Of a stretch of DNA of 46,087 bases, positions 5,102 to 46,087 are shown in pieces; the stretch's first letter is position 1; the number at the start of each line of letters is the position of its first letter. The DNA comes from an uncultured Clostridia bacterium (GTDB taxonomy: Bacteria; Bacillota; Clostridia; Christensenellales; UBA1242). Location of the stretch: positions 1-46,087 of the forward strand of contig CALVWC010000003.1 of the NCBI GenBank assembly GCA_944364445.1, written 5' to 3'. The notes under the pieces are model-generated. The model did no database searches. It was not told where the DNA came from and was given only the letters and a program-made list of their open reading frames with translations. The position numbers and the translations under genes were made by a program.

Positions 5102-5154
5102 ACTATATATTGTGTAATATGCAAGCAAAAACACAATTTGTGGTGTGGTATGCA
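5100..5154. promoter_or_regulatory. Tandem NrdR-box-like sites (31-bp period), each followed by RRTATGCA
   Basis: AAACTATATATTGTGT (5100-5115) and ACACAATTTGTGGTGT (5131-5146) versus consensus acaCwAtATaTwGtgt. Confidence 0.45.
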
Positions 5155-5164
5155 GGGAGGATTT

Positions 5165-5563
5165 ATGAAAAATTTTTCAGAAGACAGAACGGTTAACGAC
5201 CTTATTTCTAACGCTTTCGACAAAATTAAAACCATTGTTGACACACAAACAATCGTGGGTGAAAGATTGGATTTAAGCGACGGAACTGTGATTATTCCTA
5301 TATCAAAAGTGACGGTTGGCTATGTGGTTGGCGGTGGAGAATATGCCGATTTGTCTGCAAGACGCGTGGCTAATCATTATCCACTTTCTGGCGGTAGCGG
5401 TGGCGGTATGAGTGTGACGCCAGTTGGTTTTTTAATTGAAAAAGACGGAGATGTCACATTTGTTAATGTGGAAAACAAAACTCTTTACCAAACTGTTTTA
5501 AATATGTTTAACACCTTTTTAAATGCCATGCAAAAGGAAACGGAGGAAAAAGATGAAAAATAG
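5165..5563 (+). CDS. ytfJ: GerW/YtfJ family sporulation protein
   Basis: VDTQTIVGE...IIPISKVTVGYVVGGGEY...GGSGGGMSVTPVGFL; GGAGG SD. Confidence 0.9.
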   Translation: MKNFSEDRTVNDLISNAFDKIKTIVDTQTIVGERLDLSDGTVIIPISKVTVGYVVGGGEYADLSARRVANHYPLSGGSGGGMSVTPVGFLIEKDGDVTFVNVENKTLYQTVLNMFNTFLNAMQKETEEKDEK

Positions 5564-11138: not shown

Positions 11139-11230
11139 ATATCCATGAAGAGTGTGCGAGGGACAGCCCCTTTGACCACACAGCAACCTAGTTCTTGACC
11201 AAGGTGCTAATGGCTGAGTCGATGGGTAAG
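11139..11230 (+). ncRNA. SAM riboswitch, SAM-I/IV-type (no P4)
   Basis: P1 ccat/atgg, AAGAG, kink-turn P2 (tgtgcGAGGGAcagCCC..TGAccaca), P3 cagCAACC...GGTGCTAAtggctg; upstream of metK; sigmaA promoter GTGACA-17-TATAAT at 11106-11134. Confidence 0.88.
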
Positions 11231-18748: not shown

Positions 18749-19684
18749 TTATAGGAAGATAAAAACTAGGGCGAGAGTGATTAGCGCGCTGATGATGCCG
18801 TGAGTTAGTTTTTGTAAGGCAAAAAGGCGAACTGGCATTTTAACTTTGTTTAAAAGCGTTATGGATTGAAGTAAGGTGCTTATACCTCCAAAACTTATCA
18901 CAAAACTTGCTAGTATAACGCCAAGTTTAACGTTGCTTAAGGTGGATAAACTTAAACAGCCCTTTGTGATTTCAATAATTCCCTGTAAAAAGAAGGAAAT
19001 ATTATCTGGCAATAAGGAAAATATTGGAGAAAAACATTCAATTATAACAAAAAATATGGCTATGATTGCACCAACTGAAAGAATGGAAAGCGTGGAAGAA
19101 AGAACGATGTCGGACAGATTAAATTTCTTCTCTTCCACTTCTTTTTCATTGTTAATTTCCTTTTCTTTCACTTTGATATTTTTGTAAATAATTCCGTTTA
19201 TAAAGGCAGAAAGAACATGAGAGATGAAAAGAATATATCCAATTTGCGCGCTATGGAACATCCCCACACCAACTGCACCAATAATAAACATTGGCCCACT
19301 TGTTGAACAAAATGAACTCATGCGGAAGGCATCCTCTTTTGTTATCTTTCCCATTTCATAGTTATCGGCAATCATTTTTGAGCCAACTGGATAGCCAGAT
19401 AGTATTGCCATAAGAAAGGTGTAGAAGGAAATTGATGGTGTGCCAAAAACTTTTCTTGTGAACTTGCCAAAGGGTAGTTTTTCTATTTGACCTAAACTTG
19501 AAAGCACGCGTGTGAAAAACATAAAAGGCAGAACGCTTGGCAAAACATTAAACGCCCAAGCAGAAATTCCATTTAAGCCAACTTGAATAAATTTCGCTGG
19601 AAAGATAATCATATTCACAAGAAAAAAGAGAACTAAGATGGTAAATATGGTTTGCGAAAAGTTTTCCTTTAAAAGTTTTTTCAA
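18749..19684 (-). CDS. ylbJ: Sporulation integral membrane protein YlbJ
   Basis: W..NVLPS.LPF, LSGYPVGSK, SGPMFIIGAVG, G.IEITKG, ISFGGIS...Q; AAGGAG SD before TTG 19684; divergent from pta. Confidence 0.88.
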   Translation of the reverse strand: MKKLLKENFSQTIFTILVLFFLVNMIIFPAKFIQVGLNGISAWAFNVLPSVLPFMFFTRVLSSLGQIEKLPFGKFTRKVFGTPSISFYTFLMAILSGYPVGSKMIADNYEMGKITKEDAFRMSSFCSTSGPMFIIGAVGVGMFHSAQIGYILFISHVLSAFINGIIYKNIKVKEKEINNEKEVEEKKFNLSDIVLSSTLSILSVGAIIAIFFVIIECFSPIFSLLPDNISFFLQGIIEITKGCLSLSTLSNVKLGVILASFVISFGGISTLLQSITLLNKVKMPVRLFALQKLTHGIISALITLALVFIFL

Positions 19685-19817
19685 AATAACTCCTTTTTTA
19701 TTTGACAAAATTTTTATGTGTGGTTATAATTTAAATTAAGTTGGATTTGTCCAAAATTTTTCTTATATGTGCAATATATTTTATTTTGCGAATGAAGAAA
19801 AAAGAAGTGGAGAAGAT

Positions 19818-33196: not shown

Positions 33197-33916
33197 ATGA
33201 TTTTTGAAAGTTTTGTTTATTTTTTTAGCCGAATAAGTTTATTTACAAACTACATCAACACTGTGCAAGGTTTTCCTAAACCTTTGACACTGGAAGAAGA
33301 AAAACGCGAATTTAAAAAAATGCGAGCGGGAGATAAAAAAGCGCGTGAAAAACTTATCAGCCACAATTTGCGATTGGTGGCTCATGTTGTCAAAAAATAC
33401 ACCAACACACTAGAAGTTGACGATTTATTGTCTGTGGGAACAATTGGACTTATCAAAGCGATTGACACTTTTGATTATGATAAAAAGGTTCAACTTTCAA
33501 CCTATGCGGCAAGGTGCATAAACAATGAAATCTTGATGCTTATTAGGGCGAACAAAAAGCATAAAAATGTTGTTTCGCTCAACAGTTTAACAAGCAGTAA
33601 TGAAGAAGATAATGATTTGGAACTTGAAGATGTGCTATCGTCAGATGAAGATGAACTTTTTATTCAAGTTGATAACAATTTAACCATGCAAAAAATTGAA
33701 AAAATCATTTCCACTAAACTTGATGAGAGGGAGAGAGAAATTATCATTCTTAGATATGGTTTAAATAATAAGCGTGCTTTGACACAAAAAGAGGTTGCGG
33801 ATAAACTTGGAATTTCAAGGTCGTATATTTCTCGCATTGAAAACAAAGCACTTGAAGTTATAAAAGAAAATTTTGAAAAAGAGCAAACGATGAAAAAAAA
33901 TGGAGAAAATGATTAA
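33197..33916 (+). CDS. sigK: Sporulation sigma factor pro-SigK (uninterrupted)
   Basis: Hydrophobic pro-sequence then FPKPL..EEE, NLRLVAHVVKKY, TYAARCINNEILM, TQKEVADKLGISRSYISRIE. Confidence 0.92.
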   Translation: MIFESFVYFFSRISLFTNYINTVQGFPKPLTLEEEKREFKKMRAGDKKAREKLISHNLRLVAHVVKKYTNTLEVDDLLSVGTIGLIKAIDTFDYDKKVQLSTYAARCINNEILMLIRANKKHKNVVSLNSLTSSNEEDNDLELEDVLSSDEDELFIQVDNNLTMQKIEKIISTKLDEREREIIILRYGLNNKRALTQKEVADKLGISRSYISRIENKALEVIKENFEKEQTMKKNGEND

Positions 33917-35617: not shown

Positions 35618-35959
35618 GTCAGTCAGACAAATGGTCGCGTGTTATCGACTACCGATGACACGAGGAAAGTCCGAGCATCAAAAGAACAGGGTGCTAGTTA
35701 ACGGCTAGTGAAGGCGACTTTAAGGATAGTGCAACAGAAATAGACTGCCAAGTTTTCTTGGTGATGGTGGAAAGGTAGGGTAAGAGCCTACCGAAAGTTT
35801 GGTGACAAACTTTGCTCTGTAAACCCCACCCGATGCAAGGTTAAGTTTAGGCGACGGCGTTCTTTCCTGCCTAACAAAAATACCGCTTGATTTTGTTGGT
35901 GACAGCAAAACTAGATAGATGACCATTTGAAACAGAACTCGGCTTATAGTCTGGCTGAT
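35618..35959 (+). ncRNA. rnpB: RNase P RNA (type A)
   Basis: GAGGAAAGTCC, AGTGCAACAGAAA, GGTAAGAGCC, ACAGAACTCGGCTTA; P1 gtcagtcagac/gtctggctgat; promoter TTGATT-17-TATAAT at 35583-35611. Confidence 0.96.
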
Positions 35960-35964
35960 AATTT

Positions 35965-39895: not shown

Positions 39896-40030
39896 TGTCG
39901 AAAAAGTTGTTAATGAAGTCATTTTGACAGCAATTTGACGGCAGAAATAAATCTAATTGTAAAATATTGTAAAATAGCAGAAAATTAGTTGGCATAAAAT
40001 TTGACTATGTCAATTTTATTTCATTATAAT
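39896..40030 (+). promoter_or_regulatory. Spo0A-box cluster, palindromic operator and sigmaA promoter of the RinA/ArpU-like gene
   Basis: TGTCGAA 39896-39902 (perfect); TTTGACA 39923-39929 and TTTGACG 39934-39940 (reverse near-matches); inverted repeat ATAAAATTTGAC-tat-GTCAATTTTAT over TTGACT(40001)-18-TATAAT(40025). Confidence 0.55.
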
Positions 40031-40057
40031 TTCTCATGTTTTGCAAAGGAGTATATT

Positions 40058-40585
40058 ATGAAAGAAAATTGTTGGACAAAAACATTGCTTGGAACTTACA
40101 GGTATTTGGAAAATATTGCGGGTGCCATTGACAAGATGGTTATGAAAACTGCACTTAATTCTTATCACTTCTGTCGCGGGGAAAGCAATAATGTTTATAA
40201 TATTTCTAATAAAATTATTGACCTTGCGGATAGAAAAATCACCTTGATTAACCTTAAAGTGATCATAGATAAAGTGCTTATGGAAATTCCTGAAAGCGAT
40301 GCAAAACTTTTGATTGAAAGGTATGTTGAAAATGTCAAATGTCGCGTTATGGCAGAAAATTCAAAAGTAAGCATTAGAACACTTTTTAGAAAATTAACTT
40401 GTGCGGAAAACAATTTCACAAAGAAACTTGTTGCCAATGGCTATACAGATGCGAGGTTAAGCGAACTTCTTAAAAAAGAAAAGTGGATTTTAAATTTTTA
40501 TGACCAAGTGGCAAATAAGGGTGAAGAAAATTTAAATATGCAAAAAGACCTTGCTTATCAAACTAAAATTTTTGGTCTTGTTTAA
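40058..40585 (+). CDS. RinA/ArpU-like (sigma region-4-type HTH) transcriptional regulator
   Basis: N-terminal helical region then IDKVL.EI...DAKLLIERY....K...MAE...VSIRTLFRKL..A...F, the typical C-terminal pattern of phage late activators; AAGGAG SD. Confidence 0.6.
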   Translation: MKENCWTKTLLGTYRYLENIAGAIDKMVMKTALNSYHFCRGESNNVYNISNKIIDLADRKITLINLKVIIDKVLMEIPESDAKLLIERYVENVKCRVMAENSKVSIRTLFRKLTCAENNFTKKLVANGYTDARLSELLKKEKWILNFYDQVANKGEENLNMQKDLAYQTKIFGLV

Positions 40586-41346
40586 TTTAAATCGCTGTCA
40601 TCAAACTCAAAATAGTCACCATGCTGGATTTTTCTTATTGCTTTTTTCTCTGTTTTCCTTTTTTGTTTTGTTGGTTTTTTCACAAGGAAAAAGAGGATGA
40701 AAATGCTGGGAATGGTTATTGCTATTATTAAAAGCACTTTTGTGCCAGTGGATAGGTTGGAAAATGAGGTTGAAGAGCCTTCTAGTGCCTCCTCGCTTAC
40801 TTCTTCAAAAGTTTCGTTGTTGATTGTTGTTTCGGGAGGGGTGGATACCACTTCAGAATAGATATAGCCTCTGACTATCTCACCATTAAGGTTGGTGCTG
40901 GCGTAATACCATGTGTTTCCGCGACTTGAAACTTCTTCACCTTCCATTTCGCCATAGAAATTGAAAACTGTGTCCTCTTCAACATCGGCAAGGCTTGTGC
41001 TTGACGAGTTTGGATTTTCATATAGCGAATATGCCACATAGTTTGTGAAAGTGGAGTTTAAGTAAGGTGAGTTTGGAGTGCCTCGCATTAAAGTGACATC
41101 TTCTTTTTTAACAAAGCCGATTAAATCTTTGTAGGTCACTTGATAAAATTCTCCCTCCACCGATATCACACTGACGAAATAGGAATAAGGCAGTTTGAAA
41201 AGTCCGCTTGCCGAACTTAAAGAGGAGTAAAAATACGCATCGCTATCTTTTACTTTTCCATATATATTATCTTCCGCACTTGCAAAATTTATCTCTACAA
41301 AGGGAAGAAAAAGAAGGGTGAATAAAATTAAAAATATTTTTTTCAT
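40582..41346 (-). CDS. Secreted, membrane-anchored protein with two SH3b-like domains
   Basis: Signal peptide (..FASA/E), V.VISVEGEFYQVTY..LIGFVKKEDV and TWYY.....GEIVRGYIYSE, C-terminal TM and basic tail. Confidence 0.7.
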   Translation of the reverse strand: MKKIFLILFTLLFLPFVEINFASAEDNIYGKVKDSDAYFYSSLSSASGLFKLPYSYFVSVISVEGEFYQVTYKDLIGFVKKEDVTLMRGTPNSPYLNSTFTNYVAYSLYENPNSSSTSLADVEEDTVFNFYGEMEGEEVSSRGNTWYYASTNLNGEIVRGYIYSEVVSTPPETTINNETFEEVSEEALEGSSTSFSNLSTGTKVLLIIAITIPSIFILFFLVKKPTKQKRKTEKKAIRKIQHGDYFEFDDSDLN

Positions 41347-41438
41347 AGTTTAATTTTAAATCTCATTAAAGGAATTTACGGAAGAGAAATATGTCTATAT
41401 TTTTATTTTAGTAGATTTTTTTGTAAAAAGGAGGAAGG

Positions 41439-42854
41439 TTGGATAATTTAGTTTTAAATATCTTAAAAATTGAAGAAGAAATCAAAAATCGCAAAAAATT
41501 GCCATATTTTCGCTATAATAAAGGAAAAAAAGTGCATAAAAAGCAAATTTTGTTTCATAAATGTCAAAAACGAAACCGCTGGGTGTTTGGAGGAAACCGC
41601 TCTGGTAAAACCGAATGCGGAGCAATGGAAGTGGTGTTTTTGGCTCTTGGCACTCATCCATATAAAAAGAATAAGCAAACGGAGGGTTGGGTGGTTTCGC
41701 TTTCAAGGCAAGTTCAACGCGACGTTGCACAAAGAAAAATTTTGGAATATCTTCCGCCATATTCCATTGAAAAAGTTGTTATGTTGTCTGGCGGGCAAGG
41801 AAGTGCAGAAAGCGGAATTATTGATTTTATTTTGGTGAAGAACGAACTTGGCTCAATAAGCAAAATTGGCTTTAAATCGTGCGACCAAGGACGAGAGAAA
41901 TTTCAGGGTGCAAGTTTAGATTATGTTTGGTTCGACGAAGAACCGCCTTATGACATATACCTTGAATGTCGTATGCGAGTTTTAGATAGGTGTGGGGAAA
42001 TTTTTGGCACGATGACGCCGTTAAAAGGGCTTACTTGGGTTTATAACACAATTTATTTAAATGAGCATGATGACGAGGAAGTCTGGTATGAGCAAATAGA
42101 GTGGGCGGATAACCCATTTTTATCGCAAGACGAAGTTGACAGCATGACAAAGAGTATGTCAAGTGAAGAACTTGAAGCAAGGCGATATGGGAAATTTATT
42201 GCAACAAGCGGGCTTGTCTATTCCGAGTTTGACGAAAATGTGCATGTGATTGAACCCTTTGACATTCCAAGTGAGTGGCAGGATAATATCTCCATTGACC
42301 CCGGACTTCACAATCCACTTTCCGCTCATTTTTACGCGGTCGATTTTGATGATAATGTTTATGTGGTGGCTGAACATTTTGAGGCGGAAAAGGATGTTTC
42401 CTATCATGCAAACAAAATTAAAGAAATTGCAGACAGGCTAAATTGGAAAAGAACCTCCTCTGGCAAACTTTCTGCGCTCATTGACCCTGCTGCCAGTCAG
42501 CGAACGCTTTCCAGTGAAAAAACTGTGGTCGAGCTTTTTAATGAAAATGGAATTTTGGTTAACACAAAAGTGAATAAGGATATGTTTTCAGGTATTGCAA
42601 CCGTTAAATCTTACTTAAAATCGGCAGACGGCAGGGTTAAACTTTATATTTTTAAAAATTGCGTCAATTTGATTCGAGAATTTAAGTCGTATTGGTGGGG
42701 TGATGGGGATAATCCAGTGAAGAAGGACGACCACGCTCTTGATGAACTTCGATATTATCTTATGACAAAACCAAGAAACACTTATAAACCGAAAAAGTCA
42801 GAAATACAAAAGGATAAGGAGCGATTAGCAAGAAAATTGAGATTTTTAAAGTAA
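41439..42854 (+). CDS. Phage terminase large subunit (TerL), orphan
   Basis: Q-motif HKKQ..FH, Walker A GGNRSGKT, FQG..LDYVWFDEE (Walker B), coupling motif TMTP, nuclease IDPG and DDHALDELRY; AAGGAGG SD before TTG. Confidence 0.92.
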   Translation: MDNLVLNILKIEEEIKNRKKLPYFRYNKGKKVHKKQILFHKCQKRNRWVFGGNRSGKTECGAMEVVFLALGTHPYKKNKQTEGWVVSLSRQVQRDVAQRKILEYLPPYSIEKVVMLSGGQGSAESGIIDFILVKNELGSISKIGFKSCDQGREKFQGASLDYVWFDEEPPYDIYLECRMRVLDRCGEIFGTMTPLKGLTWVYNTIYLNEHDDEEVWYEQIEWADNPFLSQDEVDSMTKSMSSEELEARRYGKFIATSGLVYSEFDENVHVIEPFDIPSEWQDNISIDPGLHNPLSAHFYAVDFDDNVYVVAEHFEAEKDVSYHANKIKEIADRLNWKRTSSGKLSALIDPAASQRTLSSEKTVVELFNENGILVNTKVNKDMFSGIATVKSYLKSADGRVKLYIFKNCVNLIREFKSYWWGDGDNPVKKDDHALDELRYYLMTKPRNTYKPKKSEIQKDKERLARKLRFLK

Positions 42855-42934
42855 TATTTTATTTTTTTAAATAATTTATAAATCTATTTGGAAAAATAAA
42901 GGTAAGTGTGGTAAAACTATATAGAGAGGGAAAA

Positions 42935-45391
42935 ATGAAAAAATCTATATCCATTTTTATCAGTTTACTTCTTTGCCTTCCACTTCTTTTATGTGGTGCT
43001 TTTTTTGTGTTTAACATTAACTTTGCTAAAGCAGAGGAAGTAGAGGGGAGAGTTATTTATTTAACTAGTGACAATTTTTTACAAGTAATAAATGAATATA
43101 TTAGAGTACCTGAGACTAATCCGATCTCTACTTACATTTTGCAAGAAGATATTGATGTCTCTAATGCGAAAAAAGATTTATATGATGATATAGAAGGTTT
43201 GTTTGGAACGGCAAGTCTCCCTTTTGCTGGAACATTTGATGGTAATGGTCACACAATTTCCAATTTGCATGTGAATTTGACGGGTGACTCTTATGCAAAT
43301 TCTTCCACCATATATGCAGGGCTTTTTGGGTATACAGATGGTGCAACAATCAAAAACTTACATATTTCAGGCACATACAATGTGGAAGTGCTTGAGTCAG
43401 ACGAACTTGTGATAGGCGGGCTTGTTGGACAGGCTAATAACACCACAATCGAAAATTGCTACATAACTTCTTCCATGTTTGTTGATGTTATTAAAGGATT
43501 TAATGAGGATAATGAGGCGGTTGCTGGTAATTTTAATATGTTGACATATGGTGGATTGGTTGGAGAAATGAAATATTCTACTTTAAAAAACTCAATTGTG
43601 CGTCCAACAAGTGCAGCTAATTTTCAGCTTTCGAATGTCTATCGAACAACTTCCGTTATTGGCGGTGTTGTTGGTAATCTTAATTCTTCAAGCGTTCGTT
43701 TTGTGCTTGGCGCTCAAAGTTTGAATGTCAATATTGATGAAAATTATAATGGAAGCACATATATTGGCGGAATTGCTGGATATATAAGCCAAGGCGAAGC
43801 ACAAATCATCAACTCAATTTATGACGGCGTTATAACGGTGGAGGACGGAAGCGGAAATGCTTCGATCGGTTATGTGGGAGGTTATATTTCCTCGCCAGCA
43901 CCAAGAGCCTATAACTTAAGTTATGATTATTATTATCGACCTCAAAACAGCACCTATACCGCGTTTGGCGATTATGGAAACTATGCGTTAAGAGATAATG
44001 AAGCATATATTATTTCTCAAAGCGTAAGAGCAAATTCCTCCAACTATTTTGAAAGCAAAGAATGGAATGACCTTTATGGCGATTGGGACTTTACAGACGA
44101 TTTCATAATCAGGAACAACGTTATTTATCTTCAAGCATTTGAAGACAATTTCACTCTTCGCACTGAAGTTGACGAGTTTATTTCCATAACAAAAGAAATT
44201 GAAAGTGGTCTTAGATATGGCGACACGGCTTCTTTTAGTTTTAAATTTTCTAACATCGAGGCTGGAGTTTCTGATGAAACATTTTCAAATTATTATGAAC
44301 TGACAAACATCACGCTTGACAAGCAAGACGGCAGTCAAACGGTGGTGACCTTTTTTAAGCAGGAAAATGATAATGATGAAACACATCTCGAGCCAAGAGT
44401 TAAAAGCGAATTTCCAAACATAACCGCAGAATATAACGAGGAAACTGAAGAATATACCATAACAATAAACGGCATAACTATGAATTATGCTGGCACCTAC
44501 TCGGTGAATATTGAACCAGTTCGTTTCACAGGCAATTTTGAGTATCGCCTGTTTGATGAAGAGGGGCAACTTGATAATGAAAGTGATGAAATGAAAACAG
44601 AATGTTATGTGTATTACACCAATGGCGAAAATAGGAATGACCCAACCATTCAAATCAAAGATATGGTTTATGGAAATCGTTATTCCATTTCCACATCCGC
44701 TCGAACAAACTCTCTATATTCATTCACTGGTTGGTGTATTGTGCAATATGATGACGAAGGAAATGAGATTTCCTCCGAGGAAATTACAGGGGCAACAAAC
44801 AGAGATTTATCTTTCACCTTTGGTCAAGGCGTTTTCACAGATAATTTCACAGTTTATGCAAGATATGACTATAATGCTTGCAATTTTAACTTCATTTTGG
44901 GCGACGGAATTGAGCAGATTGTGCTTTCAAATCGCAGTGAGCCTATCACCACCACCGACACAACTGTTCCACTTTTAAAACAATTAACAAGCATAACCAT
45001 GGATGTTTATGTTAAAGCAAATGCTAGTTTTGATGTTCAAAGATTTATGGATAGTGTGAACACCTTTGATTTGGAAAATCCAGAGGCGGGTTTTTGCGTA
45101 CTTGTGGATAATTATCCAATTACTTTGGAAGACGGCACCACACAATATCAATTTACTTTAAACCTGAACAATTTAAGCACCGATAATGAAGATAGTTTTA
45201 CATTAACTTTCAACACCGAGGAGGTTCACATAACAAATTGGACGCTTGTTTGGACTCTCGTCGGCTCAATCGGTGGAGGACTTCTTCTTATCGGCGGAAT
45301 AATTTTAATTGTTTTCTTGGTTAAACGCCGTGGCGGAAGAGGTGGCGGTGGCTCACTCAAAAAATCCTCCTATAAAAATATGTATTATTAA
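42935..45391 (+). CDS. Large surface protein with GLUG-type/beta-solenoid repeats and a C-terminal TM anchor
   Basis: Signal peptide, Y.L..DID, FAGTFDGNGHTISNL, GLFGY..GATIKNL, repeated IGGLVG/IGGIAG, C-terminal TM then KRRGGRGGGG. Confidence 0.8.
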   Translation: MKKSISIFISLLLCLPLLLCGAFFVFNINFAKAEEVEGRVIYLTSDNFLQVINEYIRVPETNPISTYILQEDIDVSNAKKDLYDDIEGLFGTASLPFAGTFDGNGHTISNLHVNLTGDSYANSSTIYAGLFGYTDGATIKNLHISGTYNVEVLESDELVIGGLVGQANNTTIENCYITSSMFVDVIKGFNEDNEAVAGNFNMLTYGGLVGEMKYSTLKNSIVRPTSAANFQLSNVYRTTSVIGGVVGNLNSSSVRFVLGAQSLNVNIDENYNGSTYIGGIAGYISQGEAQIINSIYDGVITVEDGSGNASIGYVGGYISSPAPRAYNLSYDYYYRPQNSTYTAFGDYGNYALRDNEAYIISQSVRANSSNYFESKEWNDLYGDWDFTDDFIIRNNVIYLQAFEDNFTLRTEVDEFISITKEIESGLRYGDTASFSFKFSNIEAGVSDETFSNYYELTNITLDKQDGSQTVVTFFKQENDNDETHLEPRVKSEFPNITAEYNEETEEYTITINGITMNYAGTYSVNIEPVRFTGNFEYRLFDEEGQLDNESDEMKTECYVYYTNGENRNDPTIQIKDMVYGNRYSISTSARTNSLYSFTGWCIVQYDDEGNEISSEEITGATNRDLSFTFGQGVFTDNFTVYARYDYNACNFNFILGDGIEQIVLSNRSEPITTTDTTVPLLKQLTSITMDVYVKANASFDVQRFMDSVNTFDLENPEAGFCVLVDNYPITLEDGTTQYQFTLNLNNLSTDNEDSFTLTFNTEEVHITNWTLVWTLVGSIGGGLLLIGGIILIVFLVKRRGGRGGGGSLKKSSYKNMYY

Positions 45392-45734: not shown

Positions 45735-46087
45735 TAACGTTAGAGTTTGATCCTGGCTCAGGACGAACGCTGGCGGCGTGCTTAAAACATGCAAGTCGAA
45801 CGAATAAATTGTTAGCACAAAGATGTCTAGAGAAAATTCCATTACACACATAAAACAATTTTTAATTTTGCGAGGGGAAGGGCTTAGCCCGGCGAGCACA
45901 AATTAAAAATCACACACGTGGAAGAGGATTGGGAAGAGAAACCGACGAAGTAGCGGTTAGGATATGAAAATATCCGTGTCCGCCTAAAGCGAAGTTGGTG
46001 TCTGTCCCAGATAGGCGTTTTTGTGCTGACAATTTGTTAGTGGCGGACGGGTGAGTAACGCGTGAACAATCTGGCTAACACAGGGGG
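45735..46087 (+). rRNA. rrs: 16S rRNA gene, 5' part (runs off the window)
   Basis: AGAGTTTGATCCTGGCTCAG at 45742, GACGAACGCTGGCGGCGTG, CATGCAAGTCGAACG, then AGTGGCGGACGGGTGAGTAACGCGTG. Confidence 0.97.
45803..46038 (+). other. Intervening sequence / large expansion in 16S helix 6 (V1)
   Basis: 236 nt between GTCGAACG and AGTGGCGGACGG, closed by a ~26-bp stem AATAAATTGTTAGCACAAAGATGTCTA / TAGGCGTTTTTGTGCTGACAATTTGTT. Confidence 0.9.

Follow-up and report, generated by a model that had tools for sequence, protein, structure and literature searches.

The gene for a terminase large subunit (TerL) near one end of the stretch analyzed here is, on balance, probably part of a domesticated, podovirus-derived gene set for particles resembling gene transfer agents (GTAs), inherited vertically in gut Clostridia of the order Christensenellales. 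The stretch, hereafter the window, is the 46,087-nucleotide contig CALVWC010000003.1 of the uncultured Clostridia bacterium GCA_944364445.1. An earlier note on this DNA had described an orphan terminase accompanied by a RinA/ArpU-like activator under Spo0A boxes, and had proposed a dispersed, vertically inherited packaging system wired to sporulation. While TerL is indeed alone in the 46-kb window, it is not alone in the genome, where genes for a TerS-like protein, a portal, a major capsid protein, a tail nozzle and two holins are found. TerL seems orphan because the window spans an entire contig (C3) of a source genome (G000; 967 kb, 53 contigs, 86.9% complete) and its partners lie on two others, C39 and C7. 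The particles that these genes would form would probably carry host DNA.

As for the terminase itself, the 471-residue protein is intact. It matches Terminase_6N (PF03237, 8.8e-19), Terminase_6C (PF17289, 2.9e-5) and phrog_2 (2.2e-32), can be aligned with the solved D6E terminase (5oe8), and combines the N-terminal ATPase with the C-terminal RNase H-like nuclease and its acidic triad, as expected for a Terminase_6N/6C protein. In an alignment of 105 TerL sequences, 147 of the 471 positions are conserved in at least 98%, and these include Walker A (G51-G52-N53-R54-x-G56-K57), Walker B (W164-F165-D166-E167-E168), the coupling motif (T191-M192-T193) and the nuclease residues D287, D349 and D431/D435. 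The earlier note was therefore right that all ATPase and nuclease motifs are in place, and right also about a strong Shine-Dalgarno sequence, GGAGGA, ahead of the TTG start. The gene is single copy in the source genome and its neighbors are host genes (sigK, RNase P RNA, rarA, an acyltransferase gene and a 16S rRNA starting at 45735), again as noted before. There is no GC break around TerL, the values staying between 0.32 and 0.37 over 39-46 kb, and none of the 33 large window ORFs scanned with NCBIfam was phage-like.

The partner genes were located through sister families, in which TerL relatives (56-65% identical) are directly followed by genes for proteins of ~620, ~220 and ~390 aa. Searches by tblastn with these proteins returned homologues on C39 and C7, so that the portal, capsid, TerS and tail genes that the earlier note had suggested looking for were found. 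This head block runs from C39, on the minus strand, into C7, on the plus strand, where it is followed by polA. The portal matches both P22_portal and SU10_portal, and the clusters nearest to the capsid protein in the ESM Atlas are exclusively SU10_MCP-type virus clusters. Flags reading "1 TAA inside" on capsid matches were rejected as defects, these being natural stop codons. The short TerS-like protein (~95-108 aa in the family) aligns only to positions 193-242 of the 319-position phrog_309 profile. The p502 protein is, by its predicted fold, a podovirus tail nozzle: a model built with an alignment of 30 relatives (pLDDT 87, pTM 0.88) has its best structural match in the Pa223 tail (9nwi_Y, E 1.3e-20, TM 0.72), and also matches VP1, GP4, SU10, T7 gp12 and P22 gp10.

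High-level organization emerged from 80 related loci, taken from one-genome-per-species records, in which ORFs were called and clustered; the resulting counts are floors, many loci ending at contig ends. TerL is present in 78 of the 80, and in 66 it is preceded by the same two genes as in the window, encoding a small regulator (REG) and, divergent from TerL and between the two, a protein with an SH3b domain. A portal gene lies directly downstream of TerL in 38. Complete loci span ~12 kb and read REG > SH3b < TerL > TerS > c16 (a Cys-rich protein) > portal > scaffold > capsid > p106 > p193 > nozzle > one or two ORFs > holins. They are flanked by gyrB/gyrA and by genes for a polysaccharide deacetylase, SSB, dUTPase, TrmB, Era, RecO, YqfD and ribosomal protein L17. 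Among 16 conserved flank families and 32 further ORFs of eight loci, no integrase, replication or repressor domain was found. The gene content is that expected of a GTA: the genes for structure and packaging are phage-derived and come unaccompanied by any for replication, integration or lysogeny.

While the cluster is contiguous in sister families, in the genus of the source genome it is split after TerL and occupies at least two chromosomal loci, and the origin of this split can be traced stepwise. Two intermediate loci (L132 and L136) still have a contiguous cluster, interrupted only by the gene for a large surface protein (SURF827) between TerL and TerS. TerL and capsid share a contig in six genomes of the genus and are there 9, 35, 44, 52, 53 and 147 kb apart (G003, G005, G023, G011, G006 and G008, respectively), and the genes are thus scattered over the chromosome, as had been proposed. 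In the genus, a surface-protein gene would have been inserted after TerL, and later rearrangements would have moved the TerS-to-holin block, here to C39/C7 beside polA. Independently of this, some lineages possess two tandem full-length capsid genes, 41-45% identical (L129:14707-17074, L135, L139, L140, L141; G386:C2:8035-10370), which, judging from the sequences, may reflect a division of labor between hexamers and pentamers.

The capsid gene occurs once in each of the 24 genus genomes and TerL in 22 of the 24, the element is single copy in these genomes, and the head-block genes found in the genus loci that were fetched are all intact. Elsewhere, TerL and capsid are both present in the same six of 16 other families sampled. 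TerL relatives are encoded in at least 449 stretches of the one-genome-per-species collection, and, at 50% clustering, 778 representatives match the capsid family with E 1e-30 or better, the best 150 of them all below E 1e-68. Genomes of the source type measure only 0.8-1.3 Mb, of which the element takes up ~1.2%. Within clades its chromosomal position, beside polA or rarA, is kept.

Maximum likelihood trees (quick search, LG+G4) indicate vertical inheritance, as the earlier note had supposed. Those of TerL, portal and capsid reproduce the groups of PolA, the single host marker used: G000 is basal to G003/G008/G019/G018, (G006,G011) groups with G023, and (G001,G018) and (G016,G021) are recovered in those of the four trees holding both members. 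In the TerL tree, the row for a supposed second G033 copy was disregarded, this being the wrong ORF (26% identity, branch length 10). At each of the depths compared, conservation is higher in TerL than in PolA, with identities of 72-75% within the clade, 68-71% in the genus and 56-65% in other families for TerL, vs. 62-66%, 54-60% and 41-47% for PolA. Between the closest species synonymous sites are saturated, and TerL dN is 0.11-0.15 with an omega, where computable, of 0.056-0.062, that is, with no sign of relaxed selection. At equal divergence, dN is 0.16-0.18 for RarA and 0.18-0.20 for TerL, again with saturated synonymous sites. Evolution is faster in the neighboring genes, with omega values of 0.14-0.44 for REG, the SH3b protein and SURF827. 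The system to which TerL belongs is consequently a vertically inherited, phage-derived one under purifying selection, the two properties expected of a GTA, with PolA as sole host marker and quick trees.

Relatives among phages are distant. Among cultured phages, identity reaches ~31% for TerL, in podoviruses of Rhizobium, Xylella and Pelagibacter, and ~26% for the capsid. In IMG/VR, 40 contigs encode TerL relatives, and seven of the nine whose gene layout was drawn carry the same chromosomal cluster, two of the seven on contigs of 65-68 kb. Two contigs, L179 and L180 (the latter 45 kb), are genuine phages. Their GC content is higher, at 47-48%, their capsids are of other types, they encode a DnaB helicase, a replication initiator and a methyltransferase, and their TerL gene is directly preceded by that of a phrog_36 regulator. 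Their TerL is 53-56% identical to that of the window, and they are likely living relatives of the ancestor of the element, to judge from the sequences. Since L179 and L180 branch outside a 43-row element clade (SH-aLRT 99), the window TerL is not nested among active phages.

REG, which the earlier note had called RinA/ArpU-like, is indeed a putative regulator encoded upstream of TerL, but appears to belong to another family. No NCBIfam model matched it (E up to 0.01), in a collection that presumably contains RinA and ArpU models, and none of the 32 family members has a RinA or ArpU match in Pfam. REG alone produces only sub-threshold matches, to antitermination Q, phrog_79 and phrog_36. A profile built from the 32 members, in contrast, finds sigma region 4 in the PDB (SigF 8jzt, 1.8e-5), and the members themselves match Sigma70_r4_2 (12), DUF1492 (7) and antitermination Q (6). 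The REG model is all-helical (pLDDT 89.7). Its residues ~65-130 can be overlaid on domains of sigma region 4 at target-normalized TM scores of 0.70-0.81, although the Foldseek E-values, 0.5-1, are weak. Because family profile, Pfam matches and model all point to sigma region 4, we regard REG as a candidate Ltr-type late activator rather than a RinA/ArpU member. The Ltr superfamily comprises RinA, ArpU, LtrA/Sigma70_r4, LtrB/DUF1492 and LtrC, and for LtrA and LtrB proteins activation of the late promoter of terS has been shown in phages infecting Gram-positive hosts, according to the excerpted text of PMC3753634. At the family level REG has both the domain (Sigma70_r4 or DUF1492) and the position (a small protein before the terminase) of this superfamily, the matches of the window's own REG being below the family cut-offs. 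Like the Ltr activators described in the excerpts, REG is a small regulator with sigma region-4/DUF1492 similarity encoded just upstream of terminase genes (PMC3753634). Unlike them, it matches no RinA/ArpU model, carries two long extra N-terminal helices and is encoded ahead of terL instead of terS, from which a divergent gene for a membrane protein separates it.

How REG might be controlled is suggested by its upstream region, where a perfect heptamer, TGTCGAA, which we take to be the Spo0A box consensus, is found. In the window alone, such boxes are not above chance, with seven occurrences vs. 5.4 expected and 31 of 100 shuffles reaching seven. Across relatives (windows of -300 to +90 around gene starts, perfect heptamers only), they are enriched about four-fold, being present in 19 of 63 windows upstream of REG vs. 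89 of 1141 windows for all remaining genes of those loci. Since related genomes are not independent samples, this link of REG to Spo0A is suggestive only, and so is the wiring to sporulation advanced by the earlier note; a single perfect box, at 39896, is indeed present. We also observed that G000 encodes, besides a full-length Spo0A on C4, two proteins of ~130-150 aa corresponding to the C-terminal DNA-binding domain of Spo0A alone. As their sequences suggest, these could bind 0A-type boxes without phosphorylation.

A second conserved element lies upstream of TerL. Its core, WWNTG[TG]C at -52..-44, was scored with a start-anchored regular expression and occurs in 16 of 21 genus genomes vs. 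four of 467 control upstream windows, and ahead of the relocated TerS operon a similar T-rich motif, TG(T/G)C, is found in 10 of 14 cases. These elements may be binding sites of a regulator that places both loci under common control. The output of an expectation-maximization motif finder was discarded, the program having locked on the reverse complement of the start codon region of the divergent gene. Inspection by eye revealed no convincing SigE, SigK, SigF/G, SigH or sigma-54 promoter upstream of TerL. The TTTGTC core of the TerL-upstream element resembles the 5' half of the Spo0A box, and a perfect TGTCGAA occurs there in G014 (L017) and G024 (L010). Upstream of the relocated TerS-portal operon of genus genomes, a promoter-like layout, TGTGAC ... 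TTTTTG(T/G/A)CA-N7-8-TTGAAA-N17-TATAAT, is conserved (for example in L186, L187, L191 and L201; G000:C39:788-900). As for RNA, the two metatranscriptomic runs were available as Logan contigs, which carry no strand, level or transcript ends and in which uncovered stretches have no meaning. One chicken-gut library has contigs over 41466-41666, 42156-42260 and 42552-42856 at ~95% identity, a weak indication and not proof of transcription. Runs X17 and X18 were set aside as RNA evidence, being probably DNA.

The remaining genes beside TerL encode a membrane protein and a surface protein. The SH3b protein, which had correctly been described as a membrane protein divergent from terL (SH3_3 domain, 3.7e-7), has hydrophobic segments at both ends, a signal-peptide-like N terminus and a C-terminal membrane helix. 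SURF827 follows TerL in 28 of the 80 loci and throughout the genus, and evolves fast, with only 23-43% identity between species. In every lineage the module has next to it one large protein of 540-920 aa that starts with a signal peptide and ends in a membrane anchor, encoded after TerL in the genus and upstream of REG elsewhere (L084:5760-8189, L092:6393-8198, L078:5548-8178). No Pfam or PHROG family matched this large surface protein.

The features are listed in Table 1. The window also contains the sporulation genes for GPR endopeptidase (1292-2071), GerW/YtfJ (5138-5563), YlbJ (18749-19708) and SigK (33197-33916), sporulation genes thus being held in a strongly reduced gut genome of ~1 Mb. 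The window is found in chicken-gut metagenomes.

Table 1. Positions of the element, its partner genes and other features. Plain numbers refer to the window; C and L prefixes denote other contigs of the source genome (G000) and extracted loci.
Feature	Position	Strand	Basis or remark
Perfect Spo0A heptamer TGTCGAA	39896-39902	+	~156 nt upstream of REG ATG
REG, 175 aa, sigma-70 region-4-like	40058-40585 with the best start (ATG); open from 40001	+	First gene of the element
SH3b protein, 254 aa, bitopic	40582-41346	-	SH3_3 domain 3.7e-7
Conserved TerL-upstream element GGAAGAGAAATATGTCT	41380-41396	+	Genus consensus about GCAAAGAA-N-TTTGTC
Shine-Dalgarno GGAGGA	41430-41435	+	Read from the sequence; precedes TerL TTG start
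TerL, terminase large subunit (ATPase and nuclease), 471 aa, intact	41439-42854	+	Pfam, PHROG, motifs
SURF827, 827-aa surface protein	42908-45391	+	Signal peptide, C-terminal membrane anchor
TerS-like protein, 108 aa	C39:461-787	-	phrog_309 2.9e-5
Cys-rich protein (c16), 70 aa	C39:262-471	-	No family match
Portal	C39:3-335 joined to C7:1-1659		P22_portal PF16510 3.2e-22; phrog_156 1.5e-30
Scaffold-position protein	C7:1661-2320	+	No family match
Major capsid protein	C7:2336-3562	+	phrog_14242 3.3e-47; NF033394 capsid_maj_Podo 1.4e-70
p106	C7:3576-3896	+	No family match
p193	C7:3865-4446	+	No family match
p502, tail nozzle	C7:4437-5945	+	Predicted fold
BhlA-type holin	C7:6069-6257	+	PF10960 1.7e-16
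Second holin	C7:6223-6612	+	phrog_297 1.4e-11
Lone Spo0A DNA-binding-domain protein 1	C20:8669-8977 (L029:1459-1911)	- (in L029)	
Lone Spo0A DNA-binding-domain protein 2	C15:15610-15906 (L030:1453-1857)	+ (in L030)	
SAM riboswitch before metK	11140-11228		
Subtilisin-like protease, 1177 aa	22382-25915		Mycosin and PrtP as distant matches
RNase P RNA, class A	35619-35962		279 bits

The following mechanism would account for this gene set. A signal of stationary phase or of the onset of sporulation, possibly Spo0A~P acting at the boxes upstream of REG, would turn REG on, and REG would in turn activate two separate promoters, that of TerL and that of the TerS-portal-capsid genes. Procapsids would assemble on the portal and be filled by TerL and the short TerS-like protein in a headful manner, most probably with host DNA. 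It is this proposed headful filling with host DNA that would make the element GTA-like. The nozzle would close the short tail, and the two holins would release the particles.

The closest known system is FpGTA of Faecalibacterium, reported in 2026 as the first podovirus-like GTA (Nat Commun, PMC12946183). As the excerpted text of that article describes it, a ~10-kb operon encodes TerS, TerL, portal, a scaffold-position gene product, capsid and a nozzle like P22 gp10, another operon lies 125 kb away, fiber, receptor-binding protein (RBP) and endolysin genes form an operon, and the particles, ~40 nm in size, were shown to contain ~8.5-9 kb of host DNA (PMC12946183). FpGTA I is represented by the records RCH50844-RCH50852, those for capsid, portal and TerL being RCH50849, RCH50851 and RCH50852. 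Both systems belong to gut Clostridia, are made of podovirus-type parts, have a second distant locus and are nearly universal in their genus, and the excerpts report no replication or integration genes for FpGTA either (PMC12946183). The element appears to be a system of the same kind in another order. The two differ in that the FpGTA capsid is named as N4-gp56 family and that of the element as NF033394 capsid_maj_Podo, a distinction drawn from family names; in the fiber/RBP/endolysin operon, for which none was found in the element; and in that particles and DNA were shown for FpGTA, whereas the element is known from genes alone (PMC12946183). Our capsid profile matches 28 of 401 genomes of the class, with no genus of ~3-Mb genomes, and so no plausible Faecalibacterium genus, among them.

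Other systems are less similar. The alphaproteobacterial GTAs (RcGTA and CcGTA) are also vertically inherited, phage-derived head and packaging clusters with extra loci, whose production is controlled by host regulators (in part after PMC12946183). They are, however, siphovirus-like, consist of different protein families and are regulated by CtrA and GafA, in contrast to the sigma region-4, Ltr-type candidate of the element. P22/SU10-type podoviruses share its portal, SU10_MCP-type capsid clusters and nozzle fold, but have the early genes, fibers and tailspike that it lacks, and identities to cultured phages do not exceed ~31% for TerL and ~26% for the capsid. Capsid-forming phage-inducible chromosomal islands (PICIs) likewise have their own TerS, TerL, portal, capsid and few tail genes, together with an integrase, alpA and replication genes, and move horizontally. 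Neither integrase, alpA, replication module nor att site places the element among them, and its descent is vertical. In the full-text literature, a coverage that leaves aside subscription-only papers, we found no published description of the element.

Several observations weigh against a GTA-like role. The element is known from genes alone, no particle, packaged DNA or transfer having yet been observed. In the genus, no gene came to light for a tail fiber, a needle, an endolysin or a receptor-binding protein, which makes DNA delivery doubtful (the source genome being only 86.9% complete); in that genome, tblastn with the post-nozzle proteins of other lineages (c18, c34/DUF7934 and ORFs of 185-474 aa) gave no match either. 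In two of the 24 genus genomes, 94% and 89% complete, REG and Terminase_6N were not found and the head block is intact, owing either to loss or to an assembly gap. The elements of G027 and G033 are not resolved from L179/L180 deep in the TerL tree, and G033 has two copies, so that some lineages may still be phage-like and the boundary between element and phage is blurred at this deepest level. The capsid has a long stem branch (0.86) in a sub-clade (G003, G008, G019, G001, G018, G004 and G020; L200-L206) that portal, TerL and PolA do not share. This branch explains why the capsid of G000 is only 43-49% identical to those of its clade-mates vs. 52-60% to those of the rest of the genus, and a capsid replacement in the clade of G000 was rejected, the 0.86 changes per site accounting for the low identity. 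It points to an episode of fast evolution of the capsid alone, as far as the sequences tell. Finally, the Spo0A link hangs on a 7-mer in genomes that are not independent samples.

These points bear unequally on the alternatives. Domesticated particles might serve another end, either killing as PBSX does or lysis and DNA release in stationary phase or at the onset of sporulation, with packaged DNA as a by-product. The same option is left open for FpGTA, with PBSX cited, in the excerpts of PMC12946183. It would fit the two holins conserved at the end of the cluster, the lack of fiber or receptor-binding genes found in the genus and the fast-evolving surface proteins always beside the module, which could mark self and nonself. 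The TerL nuclease and ATPase motifs, the portal and the TerS-like protein are, however, strictly conserved, which argues that DNA filling itself is selected. We know of no killing mechanism, of the contractile-tail kind, for a podovirus-like nozzle, which also counts against this alternative; we consider it unlikely. The movement of the head block while REG, SH3b, TerL and the surface protein stay together, the enrichment of Spo0A boxes upstream of REG and the retention of Spo0A, SigK, GPR, GerW/YtfJ and YlbJ in a ~1-Mb genome are all compatible with a co-option of TerL in sporulation, either by itself or together with REG and the SH3b protein, as a DNA motor or nuclease that needs no capsid. 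But each of the 24 genus genomes keeps the head block intact, TerL and head block occur together across families, and the two genomes in which TerL was not found keep the head block, the opposite of what such co-option predicts. To our knowledge, there is moreover no precedent for a developmental co-option of TerL, and we give this possibility very little credence.

Spread by infection rather than descent, as a small temperate phage or a capsid-forming satellite, seems just as improbable. It could draw on the 40 IMG/VR contigs, on real phages with a 53-56% identical TerL preceded by a phrog_36 regulator and on the two copies in G033, but seven of those contigs carry the chromosomal cluster, two of them on 65-68 kb contigs. 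No integrase or replication genes were found, the element is single copy in genus genomes, its trees track PolA, its position beside polA or rarA is kept within clades, and the cluster is physically split in the genus. That the cluster is a decaying prophage remnant without function is hardly credible: the missing fiber and endolysin genes, the split and the two of 24 genomes in which TerL was not found would suit decay, but all ORFs are intact across species with saturated synonymous sites, the TerL omega is about 0.06, the catalytic motifs are invariant and the genes are kept in reduced genomes of 0.8-1.3 Mb.

We therefore favor a GTA-like particle gene set. A bolder version of this interpretation, in which the element would be an order-wide podovirus-derived GTA tied to the Spo0A decision via REG, kept even in reduced genomes of ~1 Mb as their main route of DNA exchange or repair, with the fast-evolving surface protein beside the module as recipient receptor or self-marker, and the source of the packaging seen in Christensenellaceae-labelled scaffolds, is tentative and, taken as a whole, doubtful. 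Few GTAs are known outside Alphaproteobacteria. GTA-type packaging has been reported for Christensenellaceae-labelled scaffolds, with no gene cluster named in the excerpted text (PMC12946183); for the QANA01 sp019420265 scaffold listed there, read lengths peak at ~6.3 kb. This packaging has no genes assigned to it in that text, and the cluster described here is a concrete gene candidate for it in these gut bacteria. If active, it would be a major route by which genes move among the uncultured Clostridia in the guts of poultry, ruminants and humans, and would show that the operon for a particle can be split and nevertheless be kept under selection.

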